Translations under genes and position numbers: made by a program
The notes under the pieces: generated by a model
Databases searched by the model: none
Seen by the model: the letters and a program-made list of their open reading frames with translations, nothing else
Told to the model about the DNA's origin: nothing
IMG/VR virus record: IMGVR_UViG_3300044710_000080
Location: 1 to 64,000 of that record
Direction: 5' to 3' (one strand)
Length of the DNA stretch: 64,000 nt
From: a virus
In this document: in pieces, positions 16,162 to 34,813 of the stretch
Layout of the letters: the number at the start of each line of letters is the position of its first letter
How positions within the stretch are numbered: position 1 is the first letter of the stretch

Positions 16162-17952
16162 CTATTGCAACTCGATCGACGAAAGCTGAATGGCTTGCAC
16201 CGACTGGCCATCACAATACCAGAAGGCGACCGGGGGCGATTGTCGCGCCGCGCGGACCTGGGGTGACGCCGGAAGCGTTTGTAAATACCACCCGCGTTGC
16301 TGGAGGGTCGGCGCAACGTTCGCCCCCGCCTGGTTGTTGACATTTGCGGTCTGCGCTGCCGAGAGCGTCACGCCGGCGCGGATCGCCCCGAAGTTCACCC
16401 CCGCATTGATCGGTCCGGTGAGCGATGCCTCGATCAGAGAATTGCCCGACGGGTTGTAGGGGATCGAGCCGACGCTCACGAGCAGATTGAGCAGCGCGAG
16501 CTGGAATTGATTGTTGAGCCAGATCTGGTCGACGAAGCTGTCGATCCAGGAGAACGGCCCCGAGATCGAACCGGGCGCGAAGAAGATGAAATTCTGCGCC
16601 GCCGTGCCGACCGCCGCATAGCAGTTGTAGCCGTTCGCAACTAGATTCTGATATGCGAGTTGCGCCGTCACCCCCGCGACAAGACCGGACTGCGAACGGC
16701 CTTGGAGTGTCTGCCGCCCATTCGGCTGCTCGAAGTCGATCGAGGCGATGGCACCGCACACGAAAGCGGCGAGGTTCTGGTCGGACGGCTCGTAGACGAG
16801 CACAGTCCCCGAGTAGTTCGATCCGTTCGGCCCGACCAGATAGCCCATGCTGTTCGTCGCCGGCACCGTGGTCGTCGGGTTGATGTCGGTGTCCCAGCAG
16901 ACGAAGACGTAGCGGTTGTTCTGCCCGTTCGCCCACGCTGCGAAGGCAAGTTTTTGCGTCGCCGGCGTCACCCCGCCGTCAGGATCAAATCCGAGCATGA
17001 AAGTCGCCCAGTTCTGAGTGATCTGGACGATTGCGTTCATGAAGGCTGCCGGCGTGGCCGCCGCGGCACCCTGCGAGAGCACCGCCCCGGTGAGCGAGGT
17101 CAGCTGCAGCGCAGCCGATGCGCCAGTCCCGCCGGCAAGCGTCCCGGTTGCAAACGCCGAAGTCGAGGGCGCCCCGGTTATCCCTGAGGTGATGATGAAG
17201 GCCCCGGAGACCGAATCGTAAGTCACGACCACCGGCGTCGGCTCGAGCGTGATCGGTGACGACGACATGGTCTGGTTGACGCTGACCCCGTAGGTGCCCG
17301 TCCCGCCGGCCGTGCCGGTGATCTGCGAGAGAACCACAGTGCTCGCCGCGACCCCGGTGCCGATCACAGTCTGCCCGATGGCGATGTTGTTCCCGGAGAT
17401 GCCGGTCACCGTCATCGTCCCGCCGGTGATGGTGGCGGTCCCGGTCGCCAGGATGATCGGGTTGCCGTTGAGTCCGGTCTGGATCAGCGCCGCAGCCGCC
17501 GAGAAACTCGCCGCGCCGGAAAGGACGATCGAGGAGGCGACGCGCGCGTAGCCATCCATCGTCACCGAGAGCGAGCCGGAGAGGGCCTGCAGCTGCGCCA
17601 ACGTGAGCGCCGCGACGCTCGCCCCGCGCAAATAGGCCGCGGCCGCCGAGGTATTGTATTGGGCGAATAGGACCGAGCCGGGTTTCACCAGCGAATTGTC
17701 GAAGCCGCCGAAGTAGCCGCTGCCGAGCCCGGAGCCGCCGCCTGCGATCTGCGCCTCCTTCGAGGAAGCACCGAAGAAACTCGCCACCGAGGCCGCAGAA
17801 CCGAAGGCCTGGACCGTCGGGGTGTTCGTGCCCGAGAGCGGAACCCGCGTGCTGGTCGTCAGGATCAGCCCGATCAGGTCGAGCTCTGCCCCGCCCGCGC
17901 TGATGACGCTCGGCGTGACGTTGACAAAGGTGGAGGCCGGGATCGTGGTCAT
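16162..17952 (-). CDS. Tail sheath protein (DUF3383-like) with inserted Thr/Gly-rich domain
   Basis: TIPAS.FV.VTPSVISAGG, QNWATF, SIPYN..G, RAARQSP..FWY.DG.SVQ. Confidence 0.9.
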   Translation of the reverse strand: MTTIPASTFVNVTPSVISAGGAELDLIGLILTTSTRVPLSGTNTPTVQAFGSAASVASFFGASSKEAQIAGGGSGLGSGYFGGFDNSLVKPGSVLFAQYNTSAAAAYLRGASVAALTLAQLQALSGSLSVTMDGYARVASSIVLSGAASFSAAAALIQTGLNGNPIILATGTATITGGTMTVTGISGNNIAIGQTVIGTGVAASTVVLSQITGTAGGTGTYGVSVNQTMSSSPITLEPTPVVVTYDSVSGAFIITSGITGAPSTSAFATGTLAGGTGASAALQLTSLTGAVLSQGAAAATPAAFMNAIVQITQNWATFMLGFDPDGGVTPATQKLAFAAWANGQNNRYVFVCWDTDINPTTTVPATNSMGYLVGPNGSNYSGTVLVYEPSDQNLAAFVCGAIASIDFEQPNGRQTLQGRSQSGLVAGVTAQLAYQNLVANGYNCYAAVGTAAQNFIFFAPGSISGPFSWIDSFVDQIWLNNQFQLALLNLLVSVGSIPYNPSGNSLIEASLTGPINAGVNFGAIRAGVTLSAAQTANVNNQAGANVAPTLQQRGWYLQTLPASPQVRAARQSPPVAFWYCDGQSVQAIQLSSIELQ

Positions 17953-18029
17953 GTGATCTCCTCGGCCAAGGCTGGCCATAGGTTGCTACTTGGCTTAAGA
18001 TGCCGCTGCACTGGGGATCGAAAACTGCC

Positions 18030-18674
18030 ATGATTACTAAGACTTGCACCGATTGCGGCGCCACCAAACCACTTGATCTTTTCAGCAAGCGGAATCGATC
18101 GAAGGATGGGAAAAGATCTTACTGCAAGGACTGCGGCGCACGACAAACAAGAGACTGGGTCAGCCGGAATAAGGAGAAAAAACGCAAAGCAGACGCAGAT
18201 TACAACATTAAAAATCATGCGAAGGTCAAGGCTACAAGATTGAAGTGGCTGGAGAAACATCCAAACTACAATCGCGATTATTACATACGCAACTTCGATA
18301 AAGATCGGGAGGCGGCCATTGAGCGAGCTCGACTCTATCGGAAAGCCAATCCTGGTAAAATCAATGCATGGTCGGCTGCCCGTCATGCTCGCGAACTTCG
18401 CGCTACGCCACCGTGGGTCGACCATAAAGCGATTCAATCTTTTTACATTGAGGCAGCCCGCCTGACCCGGGAGACCGGCATCAAGCATCATGTCGACCAC
18501 ATTTATCCTCTCAAATCGAAGGTGATGTGCGGCCTGCACTGCCAATTCAACTTGCAGATTCTCACCGCGAAGGAGAACCGATCCAAGTCCAATGTGCGAT
18601 GGCCCGGTCATGGTATTTCTATCAGCGAGACATTGGCGGCGTCGGCAAATTGCAGAGGAAGCAATACTGCCTGA
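18030..18674 (+). mobile_element. HNH homing endonuclease, antisense to the late operon
   Basis: N-terminal CxxC pairs; HHVDHIYPL...CGLH...NLQILTAKENRSKSN; lower GC. Confidence 0.85.
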
Positions 18675-19345
18675 TTCGCTTGCATATGAGCTTCAACAAC
18701 CCATCTCGTTTCCCACTGCTGCTCCGCATTGATGAATGGAATCTGCTTTGGGTCGTCCGCGTGGAGTGGTGTCACGCCCACGATGGGATTTCCTCCGCCG
18801 TCGAGCGCGGCCGCGAAGGCGTCAACCCCGAACTGATCCCGGAACAAGGTCGTGATGATCTGGGCGTTGTCGGAACTGCCAGGTCCGTGCACGTCGAGCT
18901 GGAAGACGGCGTCGACCGGCTGGAGGAATGATTCGGCCCCGCACGACATGGTCTGGCTCGGCGACGTCTGGCTCGGAGCGACCAGGTACGTGCCCGTCCC
19001 GCCCGGAGTGCCGGTGAGTTGATTCGTGATCGTGGAGTTCACCGCGACCCCGGTGCCGAAGAGCGTTGCCCCGCTGCCGATGGTCCCGAGCCGCAGCGCG
19101 GAAACTGTCATCGTCGTCCCGGCGATCGAGGCCGTGAAGGCTACGTCCGCGTAGGAATCGACGTTGGTCTCGATGCGGTCGCGGCGGAGCGGCCAGAAGA
19201 CGACGAAGTCAGAAAACTGCGGCTCGGCAACCCGATTTGCCTGCCCAGCGACGATTTGACCAGCGGAAAATTGCGGGAGGGCGCTAAGGAGGAAGGCCCG
19301 AAGGGCGGTCTGCACGTTTGACGACGTCGGAGCGACCGCGGTCAT
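18608..19345 (-). CDS. Tail terminator/neck protein with inserted Thr/Gly-rich domain
   Basis: [37 protein letters not shown]; upstream of sheath. Confidence 0.8.
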
Positions 19346-19842: not shown

Positions 19843-20217
19843 TCAAGAGCCATCCTGGAGGACCGCGACGATCGAACACCAATCCGGCCACTGCTCAATG
19901 ACCCGCGCCGTAAGATACACGTTCCCGTCGGAGAGCGTCAGGAGATCGCCGCCCTTACTCGAGACCCGGATGATCGCGTCAACCTCGCCGTTGAGGTAAA
20001 TCTTGCGCATCGAGCCCTGGAGATTGAGGCCCTCGATCTGGCGCAGGTCGCGGTTCGAAAGGTCTTGGACTTGGGCGGTGACGGTCACAGGCGCCGCATA
20101 GGATGGGGTAGGGGTTCCGTCCAGCGCAATCGTCGAGCCTGTGCTAGTCCGTAGCGTCGCCGCCTGCATGGGGTTGACGGCGGAGATCGGTCCCGAAACG
20201 ATTCCGTGCAGGTTCAC
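19843..20217 (-). CDS. Head closure/head-tail joining protein
   Basis: NLHGIV...AVNP, AQVQ.L, KGGDL, EQWPDW; AAGGAGG RBS with GTG start. Confidence 0.75.
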   Translation of the reverse strand: MNLHGIVSGPISAVNPMQAATLRTSTGSTIALDGTPTPSYAAPVTVTAQVQDLSNRDLRQIEGLNLQGSMRKIYLNGEVDAIIRVSSKGGDLLTLSDGNVYLTARVIEQWPDWCSIVAVLQDGS

Positions 20218-20402
20218 GCGGCCTCCTTGCTGCAATGCAACCAATTTTCAATAGACCGCTCTGGATAGCCCGTAAGATTGGCGATGTCTGTCGTATCGAA
20301 TTTGGCCTCCCGGAACCATAGCCGCACGCGAAACGGCATATCGACCCGCGGCACGTAGAGCGGCTTGAAATTCCTGGAGACAGGAAGATGCACCCAAGCC
20401 AT
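20214..20402 (-). CDS. Small HTH-like protein
   Basis: DTTDIANLTGYPERSIENWL. Confidence 0.45.
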   Translation of the reverse strand: MAWVHLPVSRNFKPLYVPRVDMPFRVRLWFREAKFDTTDIANLTGYPERSIENWLHCSKEAA

Positions 20403-20410
20403 TGCCGCTC

Positions 20411-21928
20411 TCACTCGGCGGCGACCGGCTCCCGGTGCCGCCTGCGAATCACCGTCCGCGTCATCGCCTCGATCTCGGCGCGCCCGCGCTCCCCGAACTT
20501 CCTCCCCACCATAGCAAGATAGGACGGCTCGGTGAAGTATGCAGCGAAGGCGTTGTCCCGGAAGTCGAGGATCTCCCGCGAGGTCAAGGCGGCGGTCGGC
20601 AATGGGACGGCGTCGAAGCTGTGCTGCGAGTAACCGGACCACGTCTCCGGCAGTGGCAGGCCCTTGGCAACCGCCTCTGCGTAGAGTGGCGAGCCGGGAT
20701 AGGCCATCGCGCAATAGAAGTTCGCGAACTCGCACTGCAGCTCCTCGGCGAGGTCATAGGTCTGATTCATCGTTTCCAGCGTATCGTCCGGGAGCCCGAA
20801 GATGAAGTTCCCGATGACGTTGATCCCGGCCGCCTGGATCGCGCGCACCGTCTCGACAATGTCATCGGACTTGAGCGCCTTCTTCGCCCCGTCGCGGACG
20901 TGCTTCGATCCTGACTCGATCCCGAGTGCGAGCCAGCGGATGCCAGCGGCGCGCATCTTGGCGAGTGTGTGCGGTTTGACGGTATCGACGCGGGCATACG
21001 CCCAGATGTTGAGGTCGCGCGCGAATGTAAGCCGAGTGAGGCGCTCGCAGATTTCGCCATAGTGCCGTTCGTTGAGAACGAACATTTCATCGACGATCTT
21101 GAAAGTGCGCACGCCGTGAGTCCGGTAGAGCATTTCGACTTCGGCGCAGACCGCGAGCGGCGAGCGCATCCGATAGCGGTTCGTCTGGAACGGCGCGTTG
21201 ATGCAGCAGAATGAGCATTTGTACGGGCACCCGAGCGTCGTGTAGATCGAGGCGTAGGGCTTCCGTTTCTCTGGCTCCCCGAGCGTTTGCCAGTTGTGAG
21301 CGCGATAGCGATTGACCGGGAGCATATCCCACACGTCGCCGTGCAGTTGCGATAGGTCCTCGATCAGCGGCGCTGATGGGTTGATGATGACCTGCCCTGG
21401 CTTCGGGCCGCGCCAGACGAGGCCAGGAATATCGGCCAGATCAGATCGAGTGAGAACGTACTCATTTTCTTCATTCGATTTGAATAGATGTAGCAGTTCT
21501 TCGATCGTGACCGGCCCCTCGCCGACGCAAGTATAATCGACCGTCTCCTCGACCATCGTCCGCTCTGGCAGCGCCGAGACATGGCCGCCGATCAGGATCA
21601 CCGGGACGCGGCAAACCTGCTTGATGGCGCGGGCGACAGCGCCGGCTCCCGTCATCTGTTGCGTGCTCGCGCTCGGCTGGTGCCCATAGGCGACAATCGC
21701 GCAGAGTCGCGGCTTCCAGAGCGCGACAAGGGAACCCACGTCATGCGGGTCATCCTCGGTCGCCTCCATGTCGAGAATCTTGACCGAATAGCCCCGGTCC
21801 CGAACGTATCCCGCAATCAGGCGGCAAAAGAGCGGCGGCTCGATTGCGGTGAGGTTGCTGCCGAGCGCGCCGTAGATTTCCCGGCCAGCGCTGGGGTGGA
21901 TCAGGAGGAGGTCGAGTTTGTCGGTCAT
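20411..21928 (-). CDS. B12-binding radical SAM enzyme (class B methyltransferase-like)
   Basis: N-terminal cobalamin-binding domain (ILIGGHVSALP..VGEG), GCPYKCSFC, LGIESG, FIFGLP. Confidence 0.9.
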   Translation of the reverse strand: MTDKLDLLLIHPSAGREIYGALGSNLTAIEPPLFCRLIAGYVRDRGYSVKILDMEATEDDPHDVGSLVALWKPRLCAIVAYGHQPSASTQQMTGAGAVARAIKQVCRVPVILIGGHVSALPERTMVEETVDYTCVGEGPVTIEELLHLFKSNEENEYVLTRSDLADIPGLVWRGPKPGQVIINPSAPLIEDLSQLHGDVWDMLPVNRYRAHNWQTLGEPEKRKPYASIYTTLGCPYKCSFCCINAPFQTNRYRMRSPLAVCAEVEMLYRTHGVRTFKIVDEMFVLNERHYGEICERLTRLTFARDLNIWAYARVDTVKPHTLAKMRAAGIRWLALGIESGSKHVRDGAKKALKSDDIVETVRAIQAAGINVIGNFIFGLPDDTLETMNQTYDLAEELQCEFANFYCAMAYPGSPLYAEAVAKGLPLPETWSGYSQHSFDAVPLPTAALTSREILDFRDNAFAAYFTEPSYLAMVGRKFGERGRAEIEAMTRTVIRRRHREPVAAE

Positions 21929-22173
21929 CGGACTTCGCGCCCTTCCGCATCACGGAAAATTGCTGGGTAAGAGTCGTTGCCTTCCGGCCAGCATTCGGGA
22001 CATGGAATCTCGACGGTGGCAGCGCCTTGGGGATCGGTCGGCGCCCTATCAAAATTGGTCGTTGCTCCACAGCCTGGGCATGTCGCCTTTAACGGGATCA
22101 CGATTTCTGCCCTGCTGCGGTCAAATCCGCAGGCGCGGTCGACCATCAGTTCGATTGGGGAAAGCGTCCTCAT
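21925..22173 (-). CDS. Small Zn-ribbon protein
   Basis: CPGC and CPEC; overlaps both neighbours. Confidence 0.55.
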   Translation of the reverse strand: MRTLSPIELMVDRACGFDRSRAEIVIPLKATCPGCGATTNFDRAPTDPQGAATVEIPCPECWPEGNDSYPAIFRDAEGREVR

Positions 22174-22511
22174 GGCACCATCGCCCTCGACTCTTCCCCC
22201 GCCGCGCGCTCGACGTCGGCGTCGTCGTGGTGGGTGGAGAACTCGAAGATGACAGAGTCGCGCAGGCCAGCGAAGCGGTGCCAGGTGCCGGATTCAATAT
22301 CGACCGAGTCTCCCGGCTGCATGATATGGATAGCGCCGTTCAATTCCATGCGAACTTGGCCGGACTGGAGGTAGAACGTCTCATGCTTCACCGGGTGCCG
22401 GTGCAGGCTGCACTGGAAGCCCTTCCGCAGAACCAGCATCTTGCCGCAGTAGGACTCGTTGTTGACTATCCAGCGTTCCTCGCCCCAGACCTTTTTGACG
22501 ATCTTCAGCAT
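22170..22511 (-). CDS. Cupin, sugar isomerase-like
   Basis: KVWGEE, SLHRH..KHETFY, GTWHRF. Confidence 0.8.
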   Translation of the reverse strand: MLKIVKKVWGEERWIVNNESYCGKMLVLRKGFQCSLHRHPVKHETFYLQSGQVRMELNGAIHIMQPGDSVDIESGTWHRFAGLRDSVIFEFSTHHDDADVERAAGEESRAMVP

Positions 22512-22688
22512 CCGGGCTTCCTCAGGTCGGGCGGCCAAAGCCAGAGTGAGATGCGATGCCATGCTCGGCGCCACCATTGCGGCGGCCCTTCAGCATCGAG
22601 CGGCTCTAGTGTTCCGGTCTTGAATTTCACTGATCGCGGGTCGCCGGGAAAGTTGCCGAAATAGGCTCTCGCGGCGGCGATCTCTTCC

Positions 22689-23627
22689 TCAGACGTTCCC
22701 ATTTTGCCCTCGGGGCAGCATCCGCAGTCCGACTATAAGCTCACGGATGCCGTCGTCCAAGGAGAACTGAGGCCGCCAGCGGGTCGCCTCGATCCGGGCG
22801 TTGCTGACCACATAATTCCGCTGGTCGACATCGGCCCCGACCGGAGCATCGAGGAACGTGAATCCCGGGACGTGCACGGCGATCCGCTCGCACAGCTCGC
22901 GCTTGCTGATGTTCGCGTCGGAGAGCCCGACATTGTAGGGCTTGTCCCGCATCGCCTCGAAGTTCTCGATCCCGTAGGCGAACGCCGCCGCCGCGTCCCG
23001 GACGTGCAGGTAGTTCCGCTTGAAGTGGCTCTCGTAAAGCACGACGGCCCGGTCGGTCATCGCCCGGTGCACGAAGTCGTTCACCAAGAGGTCGAGCCGC
23101 ATCCTCGGCGACATGCCGAACAGCGTGGCCAGCCGGAAGCTGATCGCGTTGCCCCGCCCCAGCACAGCCTCCTCGGCGCGCACCTTGGTGACCCCGTAGT
23201 GGCTGATCGGGCGGAGCGGCGAGTCCTCGGTGCACTCGACTCCGGGTTCCCCGATGCCATAGCCGCTGTTCGTGATCGGGATGAGCACGCGCTGGCTGAT
23301 CGACATGCGGTCGAGCGTGTTGCGGATCGCCTCAGTGTTCGTGCTGTGGGCCCCGATGCGGTCGGCCTCGCAGAGCGGTGCGCCGACGAGCGCGGCGAGC
23401 GGAATGAACACATCAGCATTCTTGAGCAATGGCTCGACTACCCGCATGTCCCGGCAGTCACCCCGCACCACGTCGAACGCCTGGTTCGCGCAGAGTGCAT
23501 TGAGAGGCATCTGGTTCCAGAGGAAATTATCGATCACCGTGACGTGGTGCCCTTCCGAAAGCAGGACGCGGACGAGGACACTGCCCAAATATCCCGCCCC
23601 CCCGGAGCAAAGCACACGAAATCCCAT
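22689..23627 (-). CDS. NAD-dependent nucleotide-sugar epimerase/reductase (extended SDR)
   Basis: SGGAGYLGS, YGVTK, FRLATLFG.SPRMRLDLLVN. Confidence 0.9.
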   Translation of the reverse strand: MGFRVLCSGGAGYLGSVLVRVLLSEGHHVTVIDNFLWNQMPLNALCANQAFDVVRGDCRDMRVVEPLLKNADVFIPLAALVGAPLCEADRIGAHSTNTEAIRNTLDRMSISQRVLIPITNSGYGIGEPGVECTEDSPLRPISHYGVTKVRAEEAVLGRGNAISFRLATLFGMSPRMRLDLLVNDFVHRAMTDRAVVLYESHFKRNYLHVRDAAAAFAYGIENFEAMRDKPYNVGLSDANISKRELCERIAVHVPGFTFLDAPVGADVDQRNYVVSNARIEATRWRPQFSLDDGIRELIVGLRMLPRGQNGNV

Positions 23628-23863
23628 CACGGAATCTCCTTCGCGAGAATGCCGAGCAGGCTCTTCGCCAGAATCTCGGCATCCTGCCGACCCATGATGA
23701 CGGCGGTGTGGAAGATGTTCCCCTCCTCCGTCCCAAAGCCCTCGCCGAAAGTGATTCGGACAACCTCCTTCGTCGCACCGACGGTGTGGGTGTTCGTGTA
23801 GATCGGCCGCACTGCGCCCCAAGACGGACGCGACGCGACGTGGCTCCCGCCGTTCCCGTTCAT
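23627..23863 (-). CDS. Small hypothetical protein
   Basis: IYTN..V....VRITFGE; translationally coupled. Confidence 0.5.
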   Translation of the reverse strand: MNGNGGSHVASRPSWGAVRPIYTNTHTVGATKEVVRITFGEGFGTEEGNIFHTAVIMGRQDAEILAKSLLGILAKEIP

Positions 23864-24010
23864 AGACTCACCAGAACTTCACGATGAAGTGGATTATGAC
23901 CCAAGCCACGCCGACCCAGAATGAGACAAATCCGATGCAAAAACCCCAGATGATGATTACGGCAGCGAGATCCTTGGGGACCACCTTCTCGGTGAATGGG
24001 AATGCGCGCC

Positions 24011-25135
24011 TCATAGCGTCCTCCGGATTACCTCGGCCAGCCGCTTGATTAGGTCTGGCGCTGACCAGGGGGGATTCCCGCAGAACATTCCTGTGACGTG
24101 GATTAGATCGGCCTTGGGCGTGGGCTGGTTCGCCCATGGAAGCCCATAGGGAGATTTTGTAAAGCTCCCGCCAGTCGGAAGGCGGCAGTCGATCGAGGCC
24201 GCCCGGAGGGCTCCTACTAGCCGCCGGCGGGCCTCCTGGCCGGCATCCACGGTGAAGTGGAGCGAAAATGGGCTCGGGCTGCCGTTCCAGGGCGGGAAGG
24301 TGACCGGGAGGCTCGCCGCCAGTCGCCGGAACAGGGCGTCATTTTCTCGCCGTGCCTTGATGAAGCCGGGGAGCTTGCGCAGTTGCTCGCGGGCGACCGC
24401 GGCGCGGATTTCGTCGGAGCGGACGTTGAATCCGAAAATTTCAAATCGGTATTCGTCCTCGAACCGCTCCGCAGGCTGAACGTCGCGCAGCCAGCCGTGC
24501 GCTCTCAGCATCCGGCAGAGCCGATTGCATTCGTCGTCGTCGGTCAGCACCGCGCCGCCCTCGATGGCTGATACCTGATGGCTGAAGAAAAAGGATTCTG
24601 TCGCCATCAGCCCGAAGGCACCCGTCGTCTTGCCATTCGTCGAGGCCCCAAGCGATTCGCAGTCGTCGTTGAGGAAGTAGGCGTCGAGCACCCCGGCCAC
24701 CGTGTTCAGCGTCCCGAGCTGTGCCGGATTGCCGAGTATCGAGCAGCCGACCACGAGCCGGATACCGGCCGGATCCTCTAATCCGAACGGGTCGGCGTTC
24801 CAGCCGTCGTCCACATCCATCAGGACAAGATCGAGGCCGTGCTGCACGAGCGGGGCGTAAGTCGTCGCCCACGCGATCGCCGGCACCAGCGCCTTGTCCC
24901 CCCGCTTGAGCGGCTTCTCGGCGCGATGGAACAGCGCCGCCGTCGCCACGAGGTTCGCGCTCGAACCCGAGTTGACCATCACGCAATGCCGGCGGCCGTG
25001 GTAGTCCGCGAGTTCCCGCTCGAATGCCGCGACCTCGGGACCGGCGGTCAACCGCCCGGACGCGAGCACGCGCTCGATGGCCGCGCGCTCCTCGGTAGAC
25101 CACGCGGAAAATGCTGTCGGATGGTCATAGGTCAT
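24011..25135 (-). CDS. colD: PLP/PMP-dependent GDP-4-keto-6-deoxymannose 3-dehydratase (ColD-like, DegT fold)
   Basis: VNSGSSANL, W.TTY.PL.Q.GL, LGNP, DDCESLGA, SFFFSHQVSAIEGG with His at the catalytic Lys position, RAHGW.R. Confidence 0.85.
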   Translation of the reverse strand: MTYDHPTAFSAWSTEERAAIERVLASGRLTAGPEVAAFERELADYHGRRHCVMVNSGSSANLVATAALFHRAEKPLKRGDKALVPAIAWATTYAPLVQHGLDLVLMDVDDGWNADPFGLEDPAGIRLVVGCSILGNPAQLGTLNTVAGVLDAYFLNDDCESLGASTNGKTTGAFGLMATESFFFSHQVSAIEGGAVLTDDDECNRLCRMLRAHGWLRDVQPAERFEDEYRFEIFGFNVRSDEIRAAVAREQLRKLPGFIKARRENDALFRRLAASLPVTFPPWNGSPSPFSLHFTVDAGQEARRRLVGALRAASIDCRLPTGGSFTKSPYGLPWANQPTPKADLIHVTGMFCGNPPWSAPDLIKRLAEVIRRTL

Positions 25136-25663
25136 TTTGTGGCCACCCATCGCCATCGTCCGTTACGGCGCGGCTGAGCACCTCCCATCGATGGCCTATA
25201 CAAACCGGGACGCCCCTTCCGATGACGATGCCAGGCGGAAGTCGGCCACCATGTGCCGCGAACGCGGATCATGCTCATGCGAATGATTCGCTCAACAGAG
25301 TCTCGTTCGCCCGCCGACTGATATGGCGAAGAGCAACTTCGGCTCCCGTGCCGACCTTCGCATGGGGCAATTCTTCATCGGCCAGATCGGCCACGAATTG
25401 GAGCGCCTTCCGCAATCGGCTTACCTCCGCTTGGTATTTTTCCACGCGGGTAACTGCGGAATCTTTGCTGAACCGTTCGACTTCGTTCTCAGTAGTCATA
25501 GTCAAGCCCTCCGTGTCCATTTGCTTCGTCGCACTTGCGCAGCAACCAGCGCCAGAACCATCGCGGCCGGCGGTCGTTCCAGTCCATGCGCTCGGCCAAA
25601 TCCCATAACCGCTTGAAACGCGCATTACGGACGTTGTGGTCAGGTAGCGCGATTCCGTCTCGA

Positions 25664-26182
25664 TTAGGCATAGAGTTCCGTCCTCTCGATCAGCAGCGTG
25701 CTCCCCTCCCGCTGCAGCGCCTTCCCGTACTCCGGCACGATCCGGTCGGCGGAATCAAGCCGGACGACCTCGACGGTTTGCAGCATTGAGCAGAATGCTT
25801 CAGTGAAGTCCCCGAGGTGTTGCGGGCCGGGATCGAGCGGCACCGGAGTTGCGATTGCCGTTCTCACGATAACGCGCGGCCGCCACGTCGAGTATCGCGG
25901 CAGGGCGTCGAGATGCAATACGAGTTGCGACATGGCGAGCAGCAGGAAGTTGACCCGCGGATAGCACGTCACCGGGATCAGCCCCGTCAGCGACATGCCC
26001 GTCGCCATTCCGAGCTGAGCATCCTCCATGACGGGAAGCTCAAGCAGCTTCTCAGGCGCAATGCCGCGGAACGTTTTCGCCATAGCCGTGCCTTCCGTCA
26101 TGGCCTGGCCCATGAAGATCGACCTCGGCTCTTCGGCAATCATCAGCATCGCCGCCCGCAGTGCATCGAAGTAAACGCTCAT
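25664..26182 (-). CDS. ThDP-dependent enzyme, E1-beta/transketolase pyrimidine-binding domain only
   Basis: ELPVMEDAQLGMATGMSL.G..P, PGPQH; only 172 aa. Confidence 0.85.
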   Translation of the reverse strand: MSVYFDALRAAMLMIAEEPRSIFMGQAMTEGTAMAKTFRGIAPEKLLELPVMEDAQLGMATGMSLTGLIPVTCYPRVNFLLLAMSQLVLHLDALPRYSTWRPRVIVRTAIATPVPLDPGPQHLGDFTEAFCSMLQTVEVVRLDSADRIVPEYGKALQREGSTLLIERTELYA

Positions 26183-26277
26183 TCCTCGTCCTCCTCATGG
26201 GGCGCGTAGATTCCCCAGAGCACGAGCATGACGCTCCCGACCGCGAGCACCCCGACGATGGCGAGAACCCCGTACAT
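26179..26277 (-). CDS. 32-aa single-TM peptide
   Basis: MYGVLAIVGVLAVGSVMLVLWGIYAPHEEDEE; overlaps both flanking genes. Confidence 0.45.
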   Translation of the reverse strand: MYGVLAIVGVLAVGSVMLVLWGIYAPHEEDEE

Positions 26278-26879
26278 TAGAAGTCCACACGCTTGCCGGC
26301 GCCCGAATGTGGAAATGGTAAAACGTACTCATAACGCCGAGTTAAACGCGCATCCGACCCTTCGCATCCATCGTCCCAAGTCTTTCGCGTATCGGTGCAA
26401 ACGCTCAAACCGTTATCTTCGACGACGAACGTGATCGGCAGGCAATGCCCGCGCGCATAGTTCCAGCATTCGTGATAGATGCCCGTGCGACTTGTCATGT
26501 CCCCGAGAAAGGCCCAACAGCGCTCATCCTTCCCCGCTCGCTTGATCGCCCATGCGATCCCGAGCGCGATGGGCAGAACCCCGCCGACGATGGCGGATGA
26601 GATCACCCGACGCGCGGGAAAATTCAACGCAATCGAATGGCCTTTCAAAATCGCGGCCCGCAGTTCCTCTGGCGGCACGCCCTTGAGCAAACAGTGGTAG
26701 TGCGACCTCCAAGAAACTGCGCACCAGTCCTGTTCACGCACGTCGGCGAAGATGTCCAGCAAGGCCTGCTCATTGCCGCCGGCCAGATGTATGGGGGACC
26801 GGATGCGTGCCGCATTGAAGTCAGCAGCCACGGATTCCTCAAACGCGCGGAGAGATTCGACAGTGTGGTTCGTGATCAT
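26277..26879 (-). CDS. ThDP-dependent enzyme, E1-alpha-like subunit
   Basis: PIHL..GNE, WRSHYH, SAIVGG, ThDP motif variant GDM...EDN. Confidence 0.85.
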   Translation of the reverse strand: MITNHTVESLRAFEESVAADFNAARIRSPIHLAGGNEQALLDIFADVREQDWCAVSWRSHYHCLLKGVPPEELRAAILKGHSIALNFPARRVISSAIVGGVLPIALGIAWAIKRAGKDERCWAFLGDMTSRTGIYHECWNYARGHCLPITFVVEDNGLSVCTDTRKTWDDGCEGSDARLTRRYEYVLPFPHSGAGKRVDF

Positions 26880-27610
26880 TCGCCGAACACATTCCAATTG
26901 CCAAACTCTTCGATGAGGTCTGCGGAGAAGCAATCAATTTTATGATCGGACCGACCACCATCGAAAGCGGCGAGAGCATTCTTCCCGGTCGCGCGGACGC
27001 CGTTAACGGCGTGGGTCGCCTTCAACCGTCGAAGCTGAACGGCGTCCGGTTCATCCGAGTTCCCATCTCGTATGCGCGTTTCGTTCTGCCAGATGTAGGC
27101 GTTGGCAAGTTGAATCACGACGATTGCCTTAATCTGCTCGGCGCGAAGCGGCGGACGTTCCGCGAGGATCAGATCAATGTCGTGCATGATGAGTTTCAGC
27201 TCGGCGCGGTAGTCATCGCGGTGCTCATCGATGAAAATTTCCTTCTGGAGCACGATGGTGAGGCGGTCGACGAGGTCGCTCAATGTCGGCAAATACTTGC
27301 GCTCGTTACCTGGAAACATCGGGCGCGCCAGAAGGGAACCGAATCCCCATTTGCCGGATGCGTAGGCTTCCCGCGTCTCGGGATCGAACTTGACGCCTTG
27401 GGCTTCCAGCGCCTCAAGAATGAGCTTCTGATGCGCGGGAGAATTTTGCGGCACGTAGGTTCCCCCGTCCGCGCACCGTATCGGGCCGGGCGCCCCACCT
27501 CGTTCGTGCTCGTCGAATCGGAGGCCGCAGCGGGCGCAGATCGGGACCATACTGGAGGGGGAGAGGGGGATGTCGGGGCCGTGGTCGTCGCGGCCGTGCT
27601 GGTCGGTCAT
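26876..27610 (-). CDS. Hypothetical protein with helical C-terminal domain, coupled to E1-alpha
   Basis: YLPTLSDLVDRLTIV..KE...N.YIW.NE..IR; ATGA overlap. Confidence 0.65.
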   Translation of the reverse strand: MTDQHGRDDHGPDIPLSPSSMVPICARCGLRFDEHERGGAPGPIRCADGGTYVPQNSPAHQKLILEALEAQGVKFDPETREAYASGKWGFGSLLARPMFPGNERKYLPTLSDLVDRLTIVLQKEIFIDEHRDDYRAELKLIMHDIDLILAERPPLRAEQIKAIVVIQLANAYIWQNETRIRDGNSDEPDAVQLRRLKATHAVNGVRATGKNALAAFDGGRSDHKIDCFSADLIEEFGNWNVFGE

Positions 27611-28237: not shown

Positions 28238-28573
28238 TCAGGTCAGGCCTTCGATCTTCCCGTTCGTGACGTGGAAGTGCGCGTTGCATCCGCCGGTGAG
28301 TTGGACCGAACTTGAGCCAGCAACCAGCGTCAGGTCGTCGATCCCGGTCCCGGTCAGGTTCCAGCGCCCCGGTTGCGGCGACACGTCCTGCGGGACTGAG
28401 GGCGACCAGCAAATGACCGAATGCACGCCGATCCCATCTGGATGCCCGAGAAAGCACTTCGGGCAAAGGAACATCACGCCGTCCGCACCCGCAATCACGT
28501 CGCCCACATCTTGAAATGTGTGATGGCTTTCCAGTTTGAGGAACTTCGCCTCTAGCTCGCGGAGTGTCGTCAT
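28238..28573 (-). CDS. Cys/His metal-binding protein (DUF6527-like)
   Basis: FLCPKC..H...W...DLTL..S......C.AHF.V.NG.I. Confidence 0.65.
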   Translation of the reverse strand: MTTLRELEAKFLKLESHHTFQDVGDVIAGADGVMFLCPKCFLGHPDGIGVHSVICWSPSVPQDVSPQPGRWNLTGTGIDDLTLVAGSSSVQLTGGCNAHFHVTNGKIEGLT

Positions 28574-29508
28574 GCCGCCACCGCCTTCTTCACCCGCGCC
28601 GGGTCGAGCACCCCGATATGGTCCAGCGCCCGCCCGACGCAGACCTCGGGCGGGAACTTCGCCTTGAACTTCTCGAATTGCGAGGCCCACACCCCGCGCC
28701 AGGCCGCCCGCACCAGCAGGCATTGGCTGTAGAAGCCCTCGATCGTGTCGGAGAATCGCACAACTTCATCCCATGGCTTCGACAGCAAATGCGGCTCCGC
28801 GACCACCGGGCGCCCAAGGCAGAGCGCCGTGTTACATCGGGACGACGATACAAGGCCCATCGATTCGAACTTCCTCACCTGGATGATGACCTTCGCCCGC
28901 CGCATCGTCTCGTCGCGTTCCTGCTGCGTCGCGAAGTCGACCACCAGCCGCACCGCCTTCTCCGTCCCCACCCGCTTCGCCAGCCGCTTCAAGATCGAGT
29001 GCCGCCGCGGTGTGAGCGACCCGTAGAACCCGAACTCGTAGTCCGGCTCCTTGTCGGTGATGCGCACCAGCGTCGGCGCATACCCGAGCTCGATCGGCGC
29101 CGCCGGCGCGAATTGCCCGTACCACTTCGTCACATGCTCGCCTGGCACCAGATGCAGGATCCCCTCGCAATACTTCGCCGCATCCGGGAACCGCTCCTGC
29201 CGGTAGACCATCTCCCGCTGCGTGCCCTGGTTGAAGCCCCGTTCGCTCGGCTCCTCCGTCGCCAGGATGATCCAGCGCGCGCCTTGCTGCGCCGCATTCG
29301 CTACCAGATTAACGCTGTCCTTCGTGAAGCCTTCGACAATGACGTTGATGCCATCGGCCCCGCTGACAAGTTTGGTATTTGAGGCATCCCATACTGCTTT
29401 GTGGCCCAAGGCATTGATTTGATGGCCGAAAATTGCAATTACGTCCTCAAGAGAACGCTGTCCTACTTCACTGTGGTTACCTAAAAAAAAGCAAAATTGT
29501 TGGCCCAT
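28570..29508 (-). CDS. Putative GT-B glycosyltransferase
   Basis: FGFYGSLTPRR, RDETMRRAKVIIQV, SSSRC..AL..G.PVVAE. Confidence 0.7.
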   Translation of the reverse strand: MGQQFCFFLGNHSEVGQRSLEDVIAIFGHQINALGHKAVWDASNTKLVSGADGINVIVEGFTKDSVNLVANAAQQGARWIILATEEPSERGFNQGTQREMVYRQERFPDAAKYCEGILHLVPGEHVTKWYGQFAPAAPIELGYAPTLVRITDKEPDYEFGFYGSLTPRRHSILKRLAKRVGTEKAVRLVVDFATQQERDETMRRAKVIIQVRKFESMGLVSSSRCNTALCLGRPVVAEPHLLSKPWDEVVRFSDTIEGFYSQCLLVRAAWRGVWASQFEKFKAKFPPEVCVGRALDHIGVLDPARVKKAVAA

Positions 29509-29951
29509 TATTTCACCTCGAAAGCAATAGCATTGATGGTTTCTGAGGTGTGAATCCATGGCTTGTCAAACCCTTTGCGGGCTATCGTCGATGCCTTCAA
29601 CGGTGGGCTCGTGATCGTCGCCACTGATTCGCGAAGCTCGCCGCTGATCTGCTCACCGACCATGGCCATTGCGGGCTTGGCGTCGAAGTCGGTTTGTTTG
29701 AGAGCGGCGGCGACGGCCTCGCCCCACTTCGGGGATTTGGCGGCGATCATGTTGCGAAAGGCGGGCCTGGGCGGCTGGCCGCGCGAGGGCACGCCGTACT
29801 CGGTGAGAGCGGCGCGGAGGGGAATCGACATGCCGTCTGAGCCCGTGGCTCCTTCGAGCCATCCGACCCGGAGGTTTGCGGGCGTGGTGATGTGCTGCGC
29901 GAGCTCGTTCAGCTTTTGCCGCAATTTCTCTCCCCCGCTGATGGTCGCCAT
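29508..29951 (-). CDS. Neck/tail completion protein (HK97 gp10-like)
   Basis: VGWLEGAT, EYG, PPRP.FR, PPL..STIARKGFDKP. Confidence 0.8.
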   Translation of the reverse strand: MATISGGEKLRQKLNELAQHITTPANLRVGWLEGATGSDGMSIPLRAALTEYGVPSRGQPPRPAFRNMIAAKSPKWGEAVAAALKQTDFDAKPAMAMVGEQISGELRESVATITSPPLKASTIARKGFDKPWIHTSETINAIAFEVK

Positions 29952-30386
29952 TTTCAAAACCCCTGGATACCGAGCAAGTGTAGCAGACCGCAGAGGAAGG
30001 CGATGTAGAGAACTTGCCCGAAGGTGAGGTCGAAGAGGAAGATGGCGTCGCTCATCGGGGCATCCGTCCGGCTTTTCTTCCCCGCGTGCCGGACAACGCG
30101 GTTACAAACCTGCGGCGTGAGACAAGTCCAAGGACGCACGGCATCGCTAGATGCTCTCCGCAGGACCGGAAGCTAATTGCGCCTCCACCATAGCCTGATG
30201 CCAGGGCGCAAGTCATGATAGGGGCAGTGGGGTTCATCCTCCAAGACCTCAAACTGTTGGCGCCAGAACTCCATCGCCGCGCGCACGAAAGATACCCGAT
30301 AAAGAACCGATCGATTACGCGACCGCGCCATGCGCCTTGTGATAATCTTGTGTGTTGCCGCCAAATTTATCATCCGAATGACTCGC

Positions 30387-31565
30387 TCATCGCAGCCACG
30401 GCAGCGCCCCTTCCGCCTCCTCCAGAGTCTCGTATCGGACAATGCCCGGCCGGTTGCGGTGCGATGGCGTTGCGAGGTCGAGCGAGCCGAGCCGGTGCGG
30501 CACCACGTAGACCCCGCCATCGTAGGAGACAAGGTTCATTGAGCCGACGGTGGCGAGGAGTTGGGGATTCGTCGGGGGCGCGAAGATGGCCCCTCCCGGC
30601 TTCTCCGTCGGGAGGGGCGCGGTTTTATCGTCGGACCCCTGAGGGCTCGTTCGTAGTCCTCCATGCTGCACCACCTCGCTTCCCTGCTGGAGGCCAATTC
30701 GCTCGAAGACTGAGGTCCAGAACGGCCGCGCGGCGTGCCGCTCGAGCATCTTGCCCCGCATCCGCTCCGCCATTTCGCGGTCGGCGTCGCCACGGGAAGG
30801 GGCGGCCCGGATGATCTGCTCTGCGTGGTCGTCGGAGCCATACTCGAGGAAATCGACCCCGGGCTCGAACCACGTCCGCGCCGGCGAGTCACTCGGCTCG
30901 AGCAGGCAGGCCCCGGCGAGCGAGGCCTCGACGAACCGGCCTTTGACGTGCCGCTTCTGGCCGGTGCCGGTCCGAGCGTCGTTGATGACGATCCGGCAAC
31001 CCGAATAGAAGGCGCAGACCTCCGGGTAGGAAACCCATGCCCCCGGGTTGAGCCATACGAGGCCGCTAGATGCGAGTCGCTGCAGGATGGGGGTCCTAGC
31101 ACCCCCACCCCCGCAAAAACCCGCCAGCGTGCCCCGCTGGGGCCAGGGGAGGGGGTTAAACATGCCGGGATCGACCGGGGTGAGCGCCACAAGGCCGAAA
31201 CGGGCGATCGGGTTCTCCCGGGATCCGTCGATTGCGACCTGGAGGCGGAACGCCCCGGCGCGATCGTATTCCTCGAGGAGCGGCCACCAGGGCGGGTCGG
31301 CGGCGTCGGAGCAGATGTGCACCATCGGCGCCACCCCGTTCGCCCGCCAGAGGGCGTCCGTCGTCGGGATCGGGCACCCGTCCTGGTGCGGCATGCAGGC
31401 GCCGATGTAGACGATGACATCCGGGCGGTGCTGCTCGGCGATAGCGCCAACATCGGCGCCGAAGACGTCATACCGGACGACCGCAGTATCGGGGACAACC
31501 GCCGTGAACGAGCGGACGAGTTTTTCAGTGTCGGGCGTTCTTGTAGTGAGGCAAAGGCCCTTCAT
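30387..31565 (-). CDS. GT-B glycosyltransferase (CgeB-like)
   Basis: CRIVIN...HVKGRFVEASLAGACLLE...WFEPGVDFLEY. Confidence 0.8.
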   Translation of the reverse strand: MKGLCLTTRTPDTEKLVRSFTAVVPDTAVVRYDVFGADVGAIAEQHRPDVIVYIGACMPHQDGCPIPTTDALWRANGVAPMVHICSDAADPPWWPLLEEYDRAGAFRLQVAIDGSRENPIARFGLVALTPVDPGMFNPLPWPQRGTLAGFCGGGGARTPILQRLASSGLVWLNPGAWVSYPEVCAFYSGCRIVINDARTGTGQKRHVKGRFVEASLAGACLLEPSDSPARTWFEPGVDFLEYGSDDHAEQIIRAAPSRGDADREMAERMRGKMLERHAARPFWTSVFERIGLQQGSEVVQHGGLRTSPQGSDDKTAPLPTEKPGGAIFAPPTNPQLLATVGSMNLVSYDGGVYVVPHRLGSLDLATPSHRNRPGIVRYETLEEAEGALPWLR

Positions 31566-31737: not shown

Positions 31738-32007
31738 TCATGCCGTCACCTTTATTGCGGGTGGAGGTGGACGAGGCCGAGACCGCAGCGACCGATCTAC
31801 CCAGAGACGCCCCGGTTCTAAGATCAGGAAACCGGGTATAGGCCGAGCCGTAGGCCCTCTCACTTCGCTGAGACGACATTCGCGCATGAGCCCTTTCCGG
31901 ACCAATGCTTCCCCCGTCTGCCAATTGTCAGGCCAACGGTCAATCCACCCCCGCGGTTCGCGAGCAGCGAAATGCAGCATCTCGCGTTGAGGTGCGCTCA
32001 ACCGCAT
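31738..32007 (-). CDS. Small winged-helix-like protein
   Basis: LSAPQREML...TGEALVRKGL...ILEPGR. Confidence 0.4.
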   Translation of the reverse strand: MRLSAPQREMLHFAAREPRGWIDRWPDNWQTGEALVRKGLMRECRLSEVRGPTARPIPGFLILEPGRLWVDRSLRSRPRPPPPAIKVTA

Positions 32008-32549
32008 AGCTCTGCAAACCGTTTGAATGGCACGCCGCCGGGTTCGCGATATTCAGCCCACGGCCAGCGGCGCAGTATCGATTCGTCCTGAGCTCTGAGT
32101 ATCGCGGTACGCTCGCCGTCCGGAGCGAGTGCGAAAATCCACCGATCCTTGACGCTCTCCTGCTGGCCCTCAGACCATGCGCCGTTGCCAGTAGGCGGTG
32201 GACGAAGGCGATGCCAAGTCGGCGCCCACCACCAATTGCAGGCCCGGTAAAGCGTCCCGGTATGGCCTACCGATGGGTCCGAATAGCTGACGATGGTCGT
32301 CGCATCCGGCCGGATGGCGCGCAACGCGCGCACGAACGCCGCCCATTGTCGGCTGCCGTCGTTGCGGATTCCGCGGATAAGGCACCAGCGCACCAGCTCG
32401 AGCCAGTGGCCGGGAAGCCGACGCGCAGTCGGCGATGCAATCACGATGGCGCCGAACTCGTCCCTCCACGCAACACCGCGATCAACTGCGCCGAGATAGT
32501 GGTTCTCGGCGAGCAGTCCAGCGATTGATCGGCAAGAAGTCCAAGTCAT
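31998..32549 (-). CDS. mom: Mom-like (GNAT-fold) DNA modification protein
   Basis: HYLG, ELVRW, IVSYSDPSVGHTGTLYRACNW. Confidence 0.75.
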   Translation of the reverse strand: MTWTSCRSIAGLLAENHYLGAVDRGVAWRDEFGAIVIASPTARRLPGHWLELVRWCLIRGIRNDGSRQWAAFVRALRAIRPDATTIVSYSDPSVGHTGTLYRACNWWWAPTWHRLRPPPTGNGAWSEGQQESVKDRWIFALAPDGERTAILRAQDESILRRWPWAEYREPGGVPFKRFAELCG

Positions 32550-33571: not shown

Positions 33572-33840
33572 CAGCCTGTCCCCGCCCGTTCATGTTCGGG
33601 CGCGCCTTGCTCGCCGCCCCACGTTGGACGCACGCCGGTTTCCTGTTCGATGATGTCGCCGACGGCATCGCGCATTATGTCCATAAACGCTTGCTTGCGA
33701 ACCGGATGATCGCGCACGAACGCCATCGCGATCGATCCGAGCCAAAGCGCCCCCTCCATAGTATCTGGCATCGCGTAGTAGGCGTTCCAGTTGTTGCCCT
33801 CTACGCGCAACGAAAGACGACCAATCTGCTGTTTTTTCAT
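33571..33840 (-). CDS. Hypothetical phage protein
   Basis: GRLSLRVEG..WNAYYA; coupled to neighbours. Confidence 0.6.
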   Translation of the reverse strand: MKKQQIGRLSLRVEGNNWNAYYAMPDTMEGALWLGSIAMAFVRDHPVRKQAFMDIMRDAVGDIIEQETGVRPTWGGEQGAPEHERAGTG

Positions 33841-34784: not shown

Positions 34785-34813
34785 ATCATAAGGGAAAATC
34801 GTCCCCGTGTCTA
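34785..34813 (-). promoter_or_regulatory. Sigma70-like promoter with operator in spacer
   Basis: TAGACA-17-TATGAT; spacer contains GGGACGATTTTCCC. Confidence 0.75.

Follow-up and report, generated by a model that had tools for sequence, protein, structure and literature searches.

A phage gene cassette for a predicted branched 3-deoxy sugar

Gene content of the minus-strand operon

The analyzed window comprises positions 1 to 64,000 of the complete, 75,025-bp record of an uncultured phage (IMGVR_UViG_3300044710_000080). Among its head and neck genes lies a minus-strand operon (20411-27610) with an intact set of predicted sugar-tailoring enzymes. The DegT-family ORF at 24011-25156 (-) encodes 381 aa (PF01041, E=6.2e-56). 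Its motif SFFFSHQ starts at residue 188, and His193 is encoded by CAT at 24578-24580. In a HMMER alignment to the structures of Escherichia coli ColD (2gms, E=1.6e-67, residues 8-377 against 4-389, about 38% identity), Ser192-His193 aligns with the Ser-His pair of the wild-type enzyme, with His193 at the catalytic His188 of ColD, where the Schiff-base Lys is replaced. This is the position changed in the mutant entries 3b8x, 2r0t and 3gr9. Structures of the Fe-S enzyme E1/RfbH score only E=1e-30, the RfbH model reaches 174 bits against a cut-off of 423, and the four-Cys [2Fe-2S] motif that separates E1/RfbH and SpnQ (which need a reductase) from ColD is not conserved, as only Cys166 is conserved across 18 homologues. 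We therefore assign this protein, from sequence, to the ColD-type, PLP/PMP-dependent, Fe-S-free sugar 3-dehydratases.

Two minimal subunits of a ThDP enzyme are encoded by neighboring genes. E1-alpha (26277-26879 (-); gene call P0001; 200 aa; PF00676, E=3.8e-16) consists of a ThDP-binding PP domain only. It aligns with residues 50-208 of human E1-alpha, and its GDM...EDN cofactor motif aligns with GDG...ENN of the human protein. A structural model (pLDDT 88.5) gave PDH/BCKDH E1-alpha as the best Foldseek matches, with TM 0.7-0.8 by query and about 0.41 by target, so that only about 40% of a real E1-alpha is covered. The family has 92 clusters at E<=1e-30, nearly all of 195-255 aa. E1-beta (25664-26182 (-); 172 aa; phrog_34187) matches PF02779 only, that is, a Pyr domain. 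An alignment showed that all mini forms stop where the bacterial full-length E1-beta starts its Transketolase_C domain, which binds E2, while the PVxE glutamate, invariant in the alignment, and the QH motif are conserved.

The extended SDR at 22689-23627 (-), with its start ATG at 23627-23625, carries the motifs GGAGYLGS and YGVTK. Its only close characterized relative is PDB 6VO6/6VO8 (E=2e-101, 342 bits, residues 3-304 against 4-305, about 51% identity over 302 residues), whereas the next PDB hit scores E=1.5e-22. Based on the depositor's molecule name, we take 6VO6 to be Cj1427, the GDP-heptose C4-dehydrogenase of Campylobacter jejuni. The SDR is furthermore 63-66% identical to Azospirillum plasmid genes, 62% identical to a gene of Trinickia caryophylli, and 53% identical to an S. 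magneticus gene in a cluster with the L-2-hydroxyglutarate oxidase LhgO.

The last enzyme of the cassette is a class B (B12-binding) radical SAM (rSAM) protein (20411-21928 (-), 505 aa), with an N-terminal B12-binding domain (PF02310, E=3.4e-13) and a radical SAM core (PF04055, E=1.3e-16) containing the motif CPYKCSFC. The best NCBIfam hits were HpnJ, the hopanoid cyclitol-forming radical SAM (2.2e-46), and BchE (9.5e-38), both far below their cut-offs; with 158.7 bits against 577.6, the protein is a relative but not a member of HpnJ. It is 39% identical (E=1.6e-94) to the cassette rSAM of T. caryophylli, where the next hit in that genome scores E=3.7e-25, and 42% identical to the cassette rSAM of S. 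magneticus.

Several smaller genes accompany these enzymes. An 82-aa four-Cys protein (21925-22173 (-); CPGCG...CPEC), zinc-ribbon or rubredoxin-like, overlaps the cupin and rSAM genes by 4 nt at its ends. It gave only weak YnfU-type zinc-binding hits and was not found in the related loci, and we infer that it may be an electron donor for the rSAM. The small metal-type cupin (22170-22577 (-), 135 aa) is PMI/lyxose-isomerase-like (Cupin_2, 1.2e-12; Lyx_isomer, 4.4e-08; MannoseP_isomer, 4.4e-05; phrog_7851, 2.4e-29) and is 46% identical to a cupin in the heptose/LPS island of cyanophage S-SM2. It is present in only a few related loci and may act, as an accessory gene, either as a precursor aldose-ketose isomerase or as a sugar epimerase. 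Two short ORFs were read directly from the sequence: a 78-aa ORF (23627-23863 (-)), whose stop overlaps the SDR start (TGATG), and a 48-aa ORF with one hydrophobic helix (23868-24014 (-)), whose ATG overlaps the stop of the ColD-like gene (ATGA). A 244-aa protein (26876-27610 (-)) had no Pfam hit, but its C-terminal 140 aa are co-conserved with the cassette (46-61% identity in the related loci L003, L004, L005, L015 and L020) and have a DUF6165/DUF4254-like helical fold according to structural neighbors in a protein atlas.

Beyond the operon lies a block of glycosyltransferases. A glycosyltransferase-like protein (28570-29559 (-), 329 aa), whose atlas neighbors include PF13524 clusters, is conserved next to the cassette and the Neck1 gene, with homologues of 54-67% identity in L003, L004 and L020 and a second, 40% copy in L003. 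It is followed by two PF13524 glycosyltransferases (30387-31565 (-), 392 aa, 5.2e-12; 32546-33571 (-), 341 aa, 2.2e-08) and a GT2-like protein (33837-34613 (-), 258 aa) with a weak PF00535 hit (E=1.1e-04, 22.7 bits, just under the 23.3-bit cut-off).

Family searches of the complete record found no 2-oxoacid_dh, lipoyl domain or Pyr_redox_2, no NTP_transferase or NTP_transf_3, no SIS_2 and no GHMP kinase, and the only GDP_Man_Dehyd match was a weak 46-bit hit on the cassette SDR. The preliminary description had reported a His in place of the aminotransferase Lys, minimal E1 genes without E2/E3 partners, and no Gmd or nucleotidyltransferase in the window. These observations are confirmed, and the absences hold for the whole phage.

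Conservation in phages and bacteria

E1-beta is adjacent to the mini E1-alpha in all 12 distinct viral loci. The Cj1427-like SDR and the rSAM are each present in 8 of 12 and a DegT protein in 9 of 12, and the full set also occurs in 5 bacterial-bin loci. In 18 of 18 related loci from phages and bacteria, the partner DegT protein carries His. The complete close-relative phages G002 and G005 likewise lack a Gmd-like gene and an NTP_transferase. Two larger phages (loci L010 and L015), however, carry a Gmd-like gene (320-354 bits, below the 415-bit cut-off) within about 2 kb of their DegT-His gene, directly adjacent in L015, so that a 3,6-dideoxy route exists in some relatives.

Bacterial versions of the cassette carry GDP-heptose genes and an L-2-hydroxyglutarate oxidase rather than Gmd. 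The S. magneticus plasmid cluster contains rSAM, kinase, E1a, E1b, DegT-His, SDR, NTase, LhgO and SIS, and the Trinickia loci contain rSAM, a GHMP kinase, a GFS-like gene, a split transketolase, DegT-His, NTase, SDR, Wzm and Wzt. No 4,6-dehydratase is present in the cassettes of Trinickia, A. thermophilum or S. magneticus. T. caryophylli is the producer of caryose (4,8-cyclo-3,9-dideoxy-nonose), and the core sits in one of its O-antigen loci (locus B), an uncharacterized candidate caryan/caryose locus. A separate locus A of this species, with RfbH and a YerE-like protein of TPP_enzyme_N/M/C architecture, fits its other sugar, caryophyllose. In comparison with the phage, locus B adds the GHMP kinase, an NTP-transferase, the GFS-like epimerase/reductase and Wzm/Wzt, and its ThDP enzyme, likewise of the transketolase superfamily, is a full-length split transketolase rather than a mini-E1.

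We found no publication describing this cassette, but its parts resemble several characterized pathways. In C. jejuni, Cj1427 makes GDP-D-glycero-4-keto-heptose with alpha-ketoglutarate, and together with the ColD-like, His-type, PLP/glutamate-dependent C3-dehydratase of serotype HS:5 it gives GDP-D-glycero-3-deoxy-4-keto-heptose in vitro (PMC10680097). There, the two enzymes come from different serotypes and were combined artificially, the natural pathways end with an epimerase and a C4-reductase, and neither a ThDP enzyme nor a radical SAM is involved, while in the phage the two predicted enzymes are natural operon partners that would feed a C-C bond-forming step. Compared with the colitose pathway of E. 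coli, the ColD-like protein has no ColC partner and its likely substrate keeps O6 and may be a heptose, although the canonical ColD substrate is GDP-4-keto-6-deoxy-D-mannose (PMC8987622); the operon context argues for a 6-hydroxy 4-keto GDP-sugar. In the yersiniose pathway (E1/E3, then YerE and YerF), a 3-deoxy-4-keto sugar likewise receives a pyruvate-derived C2 unit at C4 from a ThDP enzyme (PMC9306805). YerE, however, is a single-chain flavoenzyme of the acetolactate-synthase type with TPP_enzyme_N, M and C domains, acting on a CDP-sugar and is thus analogous, not homologous, to the phage pair, in which only E1_dh and Transket_pyr domains were found; the phage also lacks a YerF-like reductase, and its dehydratase is not of the Fe-S E1 type. 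AviB1/AviB2 (avilamycin) and Pau11/Pau12 (paulomycin) are PDH-like, split E1 pairs without E2 or E3, encoded in sugar clusters, that install C4 acetyl branches (PMC4753412; PMC4425429). Pau11 and Pau12 have 325 and 345 aa, whereas the phage subunits lack the C-terminal half of alpha and the Transketolase_C domain of beta, and the actinomycete enzymes are proposed to act on an already attached TDP-derived sugar.

Proposed pathway and alternative readings

We posit that the operon most likely turns a GDP-manno-configured sugar from the host pool into an undescribed 3-deoxy, carbon-branched sugar, possibly the ring-closed, nine-carbon caryose, whose biosynthesis has not been described. In this view, the Cj1427-like SDR would first oxidize C4, with alpha-ketoglutarate re-oxidizing its bound NADH. 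The ColD-type enzyme would then remove the 3-OH through PMP chemistry, consuming glutamate and releasing alpha-ketoglutarate that can feed the first step. The E1-alpha/E1-beta pair would decarboxylate a 2-oxo acid, most simply pyruvate, and add the acyl-anion equivalent to the C4 ketone, yielding a 4-C-acetyl tertiary alcohol by YerE/AviB-type chemistry. Finally, the rSAM would remodel this intermediate, either by joining C7 to the acetyl carbonyl to give a caryose-type cyclopentane or by C-methylation, and the adjacent glycosyltransferases would transfer the sugar, with the late-operon position suggesting virion proteins as the target.

What our analysis shows directly is the family identity of each enzyme, the catalytic His, the truncated ThDP architecture, the conserved gene association and the absence of precursor genes, whereas all substrates and activities, including the use of alpha-ketoglutarate by the SDR, the order of the ThDP and rSAM steps, the 2-oxo acid donor, the final structure and the acceptor are inferred. 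The ThDP subunit type differs between loci (E1-type or split transketolase), which leaves the donor unit uncertain, and since the phage has no second reductase and no GFS-like gene, its end product may differ from the bacterial one. Overall, we consider this pathway more likely than not, with moderate confidence.

The interpretation in the preliminary description is thereby supported only in part. It had proposed that GDP-4-keto-6-deoxymannose from the host undergoes 3-deoxygenation, C4 branching by the ThDP pair, SDR reduction and possibly radical SAM methylation, yielding a branched-chain 3,6-dideoxyhexose. 3-Deoxygenation followed by ThDP-dependent branching at C4 is well supported and remains the best reading, as the conserved operon partner of the dehydratase is a ThDP enzyme that cannot belong to a dehydrogenase complex. 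The SDR as a final ketoreductase and the dependence on host GDP-4-keto-6-deoxymannose are not supported. Given the similarity of the SDR to the C4-dehydrogenase, the cassette probably makes its own 4-keto group, needs no Gmd and keeps O6, and the product is more likely a 3-deoxy, probably heptose-based, branched sugar than a 3,6-dideoxyhexose. Methylation by the rSAM is only one option, and ring closure fits at least as well.

The Gmd-fed route to a yersiniose-type sugar of the manno series, in which the SDR would reduce the side-chain ketone, draws some support from the 6-deoxy substrate of ColD, from the YerF-type reduction that yersiniose needs after branching, and from the Gmd-like genes at L010 and L015. 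We nevertheless regard it as unlikely, since a Gmd-fed pathway would not need this SDR, yet it is a core member of the cassette, and since no 4,6-dehydratase was found in this phage, in G002 and G005 or in the bacterial cassettes named above. The LhgO gene in the S. magneticus cluster furthermore fits a cycle from alpha-ketoglutarate to L-2-hydroxyglutarate, although this is only indirect evidence for the ping-pong use of alpha-ketoglutarate, giving L-2-hydroxyglutarate, that marks Cj1427-type enzymes.

Equally doubtful is the possibility that the same core chemistry serves a base hypermodification of phage DNA, or the host envelope to block superinfection, rather than virion proteins. A Mom-family gene lies inside the glycosyltransferase block (PF25680, 3.5e-12), a DpdA-like gene was reported at 47101-47877 in a preliminary reading of the sequence alone, and the bacterial homologues of the cassette serve O-antigens. 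The island is, however, located between the major head, Neck1 and tail sheath genes on the same strand, a position conserved in L004 and L020 that fits late expression with virion assembly, and no Wzm/Wzt, flippase or lipid-carrier transferase was seen in the phage island.

That the ThDP pair is an auxiliary metabolic gene for central carbon metabolism (pyruvate or acetoin handling), unrelated to the sugar genes and leaving these to make only a simple 3-deoxy or colitose-like sugar, is very unlikely despite best family hits to PDH E1-alpha and E1-beta, given the lack of E2, E3 and lipoyl domains in the genome, the truncation of both subunits, the overlapping gene ends within the sugar operon, and the conserved linkage to the SDR, DegT-His and rSAM in phages and bacteria.

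Genomic context and the sugar cassette

The phage genome is a complete IMG/VR virus record of 75,025 bp with direct terminal repeats, of which the window is the first 64 kb, and PHROG hits show a contractile-tailed phage. The tail sheath (16162-17979), a head protein (19843-20244), Neck1/tail completion (29508-29957), a virion structural protein (DUF4054; 34811-35272) and the major head protein (36761-37864) are all encoded on the minus strand. The cassette lies inside a 14-kb sugar and glycosyltransferase island that is embedded in this late operon. A megablast search of the island against 50,697 GenBank phages found nothing. Among cultured phages, only the cyanophages S-SM2 and P-TIM68 have a homologue, a fused E1ab of 36-39% identity, and none has a close Cj1427-like SDR, the best match being 31% identical.

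The DegT-family ORF (24011-25156) contains the motif SFFFSHQ with His193, encoded by CAT at 24578-24580. It aligns over its full length with E. coli ColD (2gms, E=1.6e-67; about 38% identity by our count), and His193 lies on the catalytic histidine, the residue altered in the mutant entries 3b8x, 2r0t and 3gr9. E1-alpha (26277-26879, 200 aa) and E1-beta (25664-26182, 172 aa) carry only the PP and Pyr domains. Family searches of the whole genome found no E2, lipoyl domain, E3, NTP-transferase, SIS isomerase, GHMP kinase or true Gmd. The preliminary description had noted the histidine, the minimal E1 genes without E2/E3 partner and the lack of Gmd and nucleotidyltransferase; these observations are confirmed and extend to the whole phage.

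Sequence-based assignment of the cassette enzymes

The DegT protein is ColD-type and not E1/RfbH-type, as ColD scores 1e-67 against 1e-30 for E1, and the RfbH model reaches 174 of the 423 bits required. Only one cysteine is conserved among 18 homologues, so there is no [2Fe-2S] site and no reductase is needed (background in PMC8987622). Deoxygenation of the E1/E3 (RfbH) type was rejected because there is neither a Cys motif nor a reductase.

The SDR (22689-23627) changes the reading of the cassette most. Its only close solved relative is 6VO6/6VO8 (E=2e-101, about 51% identity over 302 residues), which we take to be Cj1427, the GDP-heptose C4-dehydrogenase, while the next hit is at E=1.5e-22. 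The NADH bound by Cj1427 is re-oxidised by alpha-ketoglutarate, giving L-2-hydroxyglutarate, and Cj1427 together with a ColD-like C3-dehydratase converts GDP-heptose to GDP-D-glycero-3-deoxy-4-keto-heptose in vitro (PMC10680097). The same paper reports a mass value of 616.08 for this compound, against an expected 616.07.

The E1 pair is a stripped-down ThDP enzyme. The GDM...EDN motif aligns with GDG...ENN of human E1-alpha, the Pyr-domain glutamate (PVxE) is invariant, and all mini E1-beta proteins end exactly where the bacterial full-length E1-beta proteins begin their Transketolase_C domain. The predicted structure of E1-alpha (pLDDT 88.5) matches PDH/BCKDH E1-alpha, but covers only about 40% of those proteins. 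The family has 92 clusters (at 50% identity) scoring E<=1e-30, nearly all of 195-255 aa; for comparison, Pau11 and Pau12 are 325 and 345 aa.

The radical SAM enzyme has a B12-binding domain and a CxxxCxxC core, and its best NCBIfam hits are HpnJ and BchE, both far below their cut-offs. HpnJ is implicated in the formation of five-membered carbocycles (PMC9092360). BchE is likewise implicated in forming such rings. An 82-aa four-Cys protein (21925-22173, minus strand) with CPGCG...CPEC motifs is rubredoxin- or zinc-ribbon-like, its ends overlap the cupin and B12-radical SAM genes by 4 nt, and it could be a dedicated electron donor for the radical SAM enzyme.

The remaining accessory genes are a metal-type PMI-like cupin, two small ORFs, a DUF6165-like protein and four glycosyltransferase-like genes. 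The two unannotated ORFs fill the ColD-SDR gap on the minus strand: one (23868-24014) encodes a 48-aa hydrophobic peptide and its ATG overlaps the ColD stop (ATGA), whereas the other (23627-23863) is a 78-aa ORF whose stop overlaps the SDR start (TGATG). The cupin was also considered as an RmlC-type epimerase, but there is no PF00908 hit and metal-binding His residues are present. In cyanophage S-SM2 (locus L021, 21919-22296), the gene annotated as 'putative nucleotidyltransferase' (SSM2_211) is a small cupin 46% identical to that of the phage. It sits among heptose-pathway genes, so the annotation is probably a carry-over from the cupin domain of bifunctional ManC. A fosfomycin- or phosphonate-like set (ThDP decarboxylase, dehydrogenase, B12-rSAM, cupin) was rejected, as there is no PEP mutase, the ThDP enzyme is E1/TK-type rather than Ppd-type, and the SDR and DegT proteins are clearly GDP-sugar enzymes.

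Distribution of the cassette in phages and bacteria

A scan for the mini E1-alpha found 18 IMG/VR loci, which represent 12 distinct sequences. E1-beta is adjacent in all 12, the Cj1427-like SDR and the rSAM are each present in 8, and a DegT protein in 9. Five loci binned to bacteria (Verrucomicrobiota, SAR116, Pelagibacteraceae, Gammaproteobacteria) hold all five genes. In every one of 18 DegT partners the catalytic position is His. The complete close relatives G002 and G005 resemble this phage in having no Gmd-like gene and no NTP-transferase, while in another phage (L010) a GHMP kinase, an RmlC-like epimerase and a Gmd-like gene accompany the module.

Cultured bacteria carry the same module with full-length ThDP subunits. 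The Azospirillum thermophilum plasmid has E1a, E1b, DegT-His (47% identity) and the SDR (65%). Plasmid pDMC1 of Solidesulfovibrio magneticus (locus L103, 19676-44599) has rSAM (42%), NUDIX, kinase, E1a, E1b, a GFS-like gene, DegT-His, the SDR (53%) and an NTase, accompanied by L-2-hydroxyglutarate oxidase, a SIS isomerase and a PMT-type lipid-carrier-dependent glycosyltransferase. The oxidase is what a Cj1427-type cycle would need, suggesting alpha-KG recycling, the SIS, kinase and NTase genes point to GDP-heptose, and the PMT-type enzyme suggests protein O-glycosylation. In some bacteria (Azospirillum sp. B510 pAB510f, locus L102, and loci L115-L120) the ThDP partner of the Cj1427-like SDR is a split transketolase rather than an E1 pair, an exchange within the same superfamily at the same pathway position.

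Proposed pathway and a possible link to caryose

A DegT-His dehydratase needs a 4-keto substrate, and neither the phage cassette nor the Trinickia, Azospirillum or S. magneticus cassettes contain a 4,6-dehydratase. The SDR is therefore best read as the enzyme that creates the ketone, without removing O6. We posit a sequence of C4 oxidation, C3 deoxygenation, ThDP-mediated addition of a C2 unit to C4, radical SAM remodelling and glycosyl transfer, in which glutamate-derived alpha-ketoglutarate from the deoxygenation can serve as the oxidant for the first step. While the homologies, the catalytic histidine and the conserved gene linkage were established by our analysis, the activity of every cassette member is inferred from sequence, as is a suitable GDP-sugar pool in the host, and the branching step rests on analogy and conserved linkage. 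YerE acts on just such a 3-deoxy-4-keto sugar (PMC9306805), and E1-type pairs install C4 acetyl branches in avilamycin and paulomycin. The interpretation given in the preliminary description is thus only partly supported: its ColD and ThDP logic holds, but a 3,6-dideoxy product, the supply of the substrate by host Gmd and a reduction by the SDR are not supported.

We further examined whether the cassette could produce a caryose-type sugar. Of 396 sampled Burkholderiaceae genomes, 7 have the SDR at 57-62% identity, and exact-sequence look-up identified Trinickia caryophylli, Trinickia sp., Trinickia acidisoli and a Polynucleobacter among them. In T. caryophylli the operon contains B12-rSAM, GHMP kinase, a GFS-like gene, a split transketolase, DegT-His, NTP-transferase, the SDR, Wzm, Wzt with its C-terminal domain, and a large glycosyltransferase. 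The best match of the phage rSAM in that genome is the rSAM of this operon (39% identity, E=1.6e-94, against 3.7e-25 for the next). T. caryophylli makes two homopolymers, of caryose and of caryophyllose (PMC9092360), and its genome has a second O-polysaccharide locus (L125, G176:C1:1359200-1379199) with an NTP-transferase, a 4,6-dehydratase, a true RfbH (754 bits), Wzm/Wzt and a YerE-like ThDP enzyme. This second locus matches the published scheme for caryophyllose-type sugars (PMC9306805) and is a good candidate for the caryophyllose/caryophyllan locus.

By elimination and by chemistry, the heptose-type locus fits caryose. Seven carbons plus two give nine, the 3-deoxy position would come from the dehydratase, the C4-C8 bond from the ThDP step and the C9 methyl from pyruvate, whereas the C7-C8 bond would be a radical closure. 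In this view, GDP-heptose would be oxidised at C4, deoxygenated at C3 and acetylated at C4 by the mini ThDP enzyme, the B12-radical SAM enzyme would join C7 to the acetyl carbonyl to make the cyclopentane ring, and the phage glycosyltransferases would place this carbocyclic sugar on its own virion. This evidence is circumstantial, and the phage lacks the GFS-like gene and uses an E1-type ThDP enzyme; we therefore regard the caryose-type reading for the phage as tentative. Full-text literature searches found no paper describing the pathway, and a 2022 review states that the origin of caryose is unknown (PMC9092360). The finding makes this long-open question directly testable: the enzyme set would account for each feature of that molecule, including its quaternary C4 and five-membered carbocycle, and the caryose producer carries the cassette in an O-antigen locus. 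The 200 + 172 aa E1 pair is in turn predicted to be a natural minimal ThDP carboligase that should form a chiral tertiary alcohol, a reaction sought in biocatalysis (PMC12247030).

The cassette predicts a sugar class not yet described for any virus, and probably a new glycan decoration on phage particles, although virion glycosylation is inferred only from gene position. Such decoration bears on phage-host recognition and on immune recognition of therapeutic phages. A Mom-family protein (31998-32549, minus strand; PF25680, E=3.5e-12) sits inside the glycosyltransferase block, between two GT genes. A segment of about 60 residues matching phrog_21413/phrog_38233 recurs on the minus strand in the tail sheath (16162-17979; residues 179-244), a 245-aa protein (18608-19345; residues 66-174) and the minor head protein (37910-38851; residues 230-289). 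It looks like a shared surface domain on three virion proteins and could be a glycan acceptor or binder.
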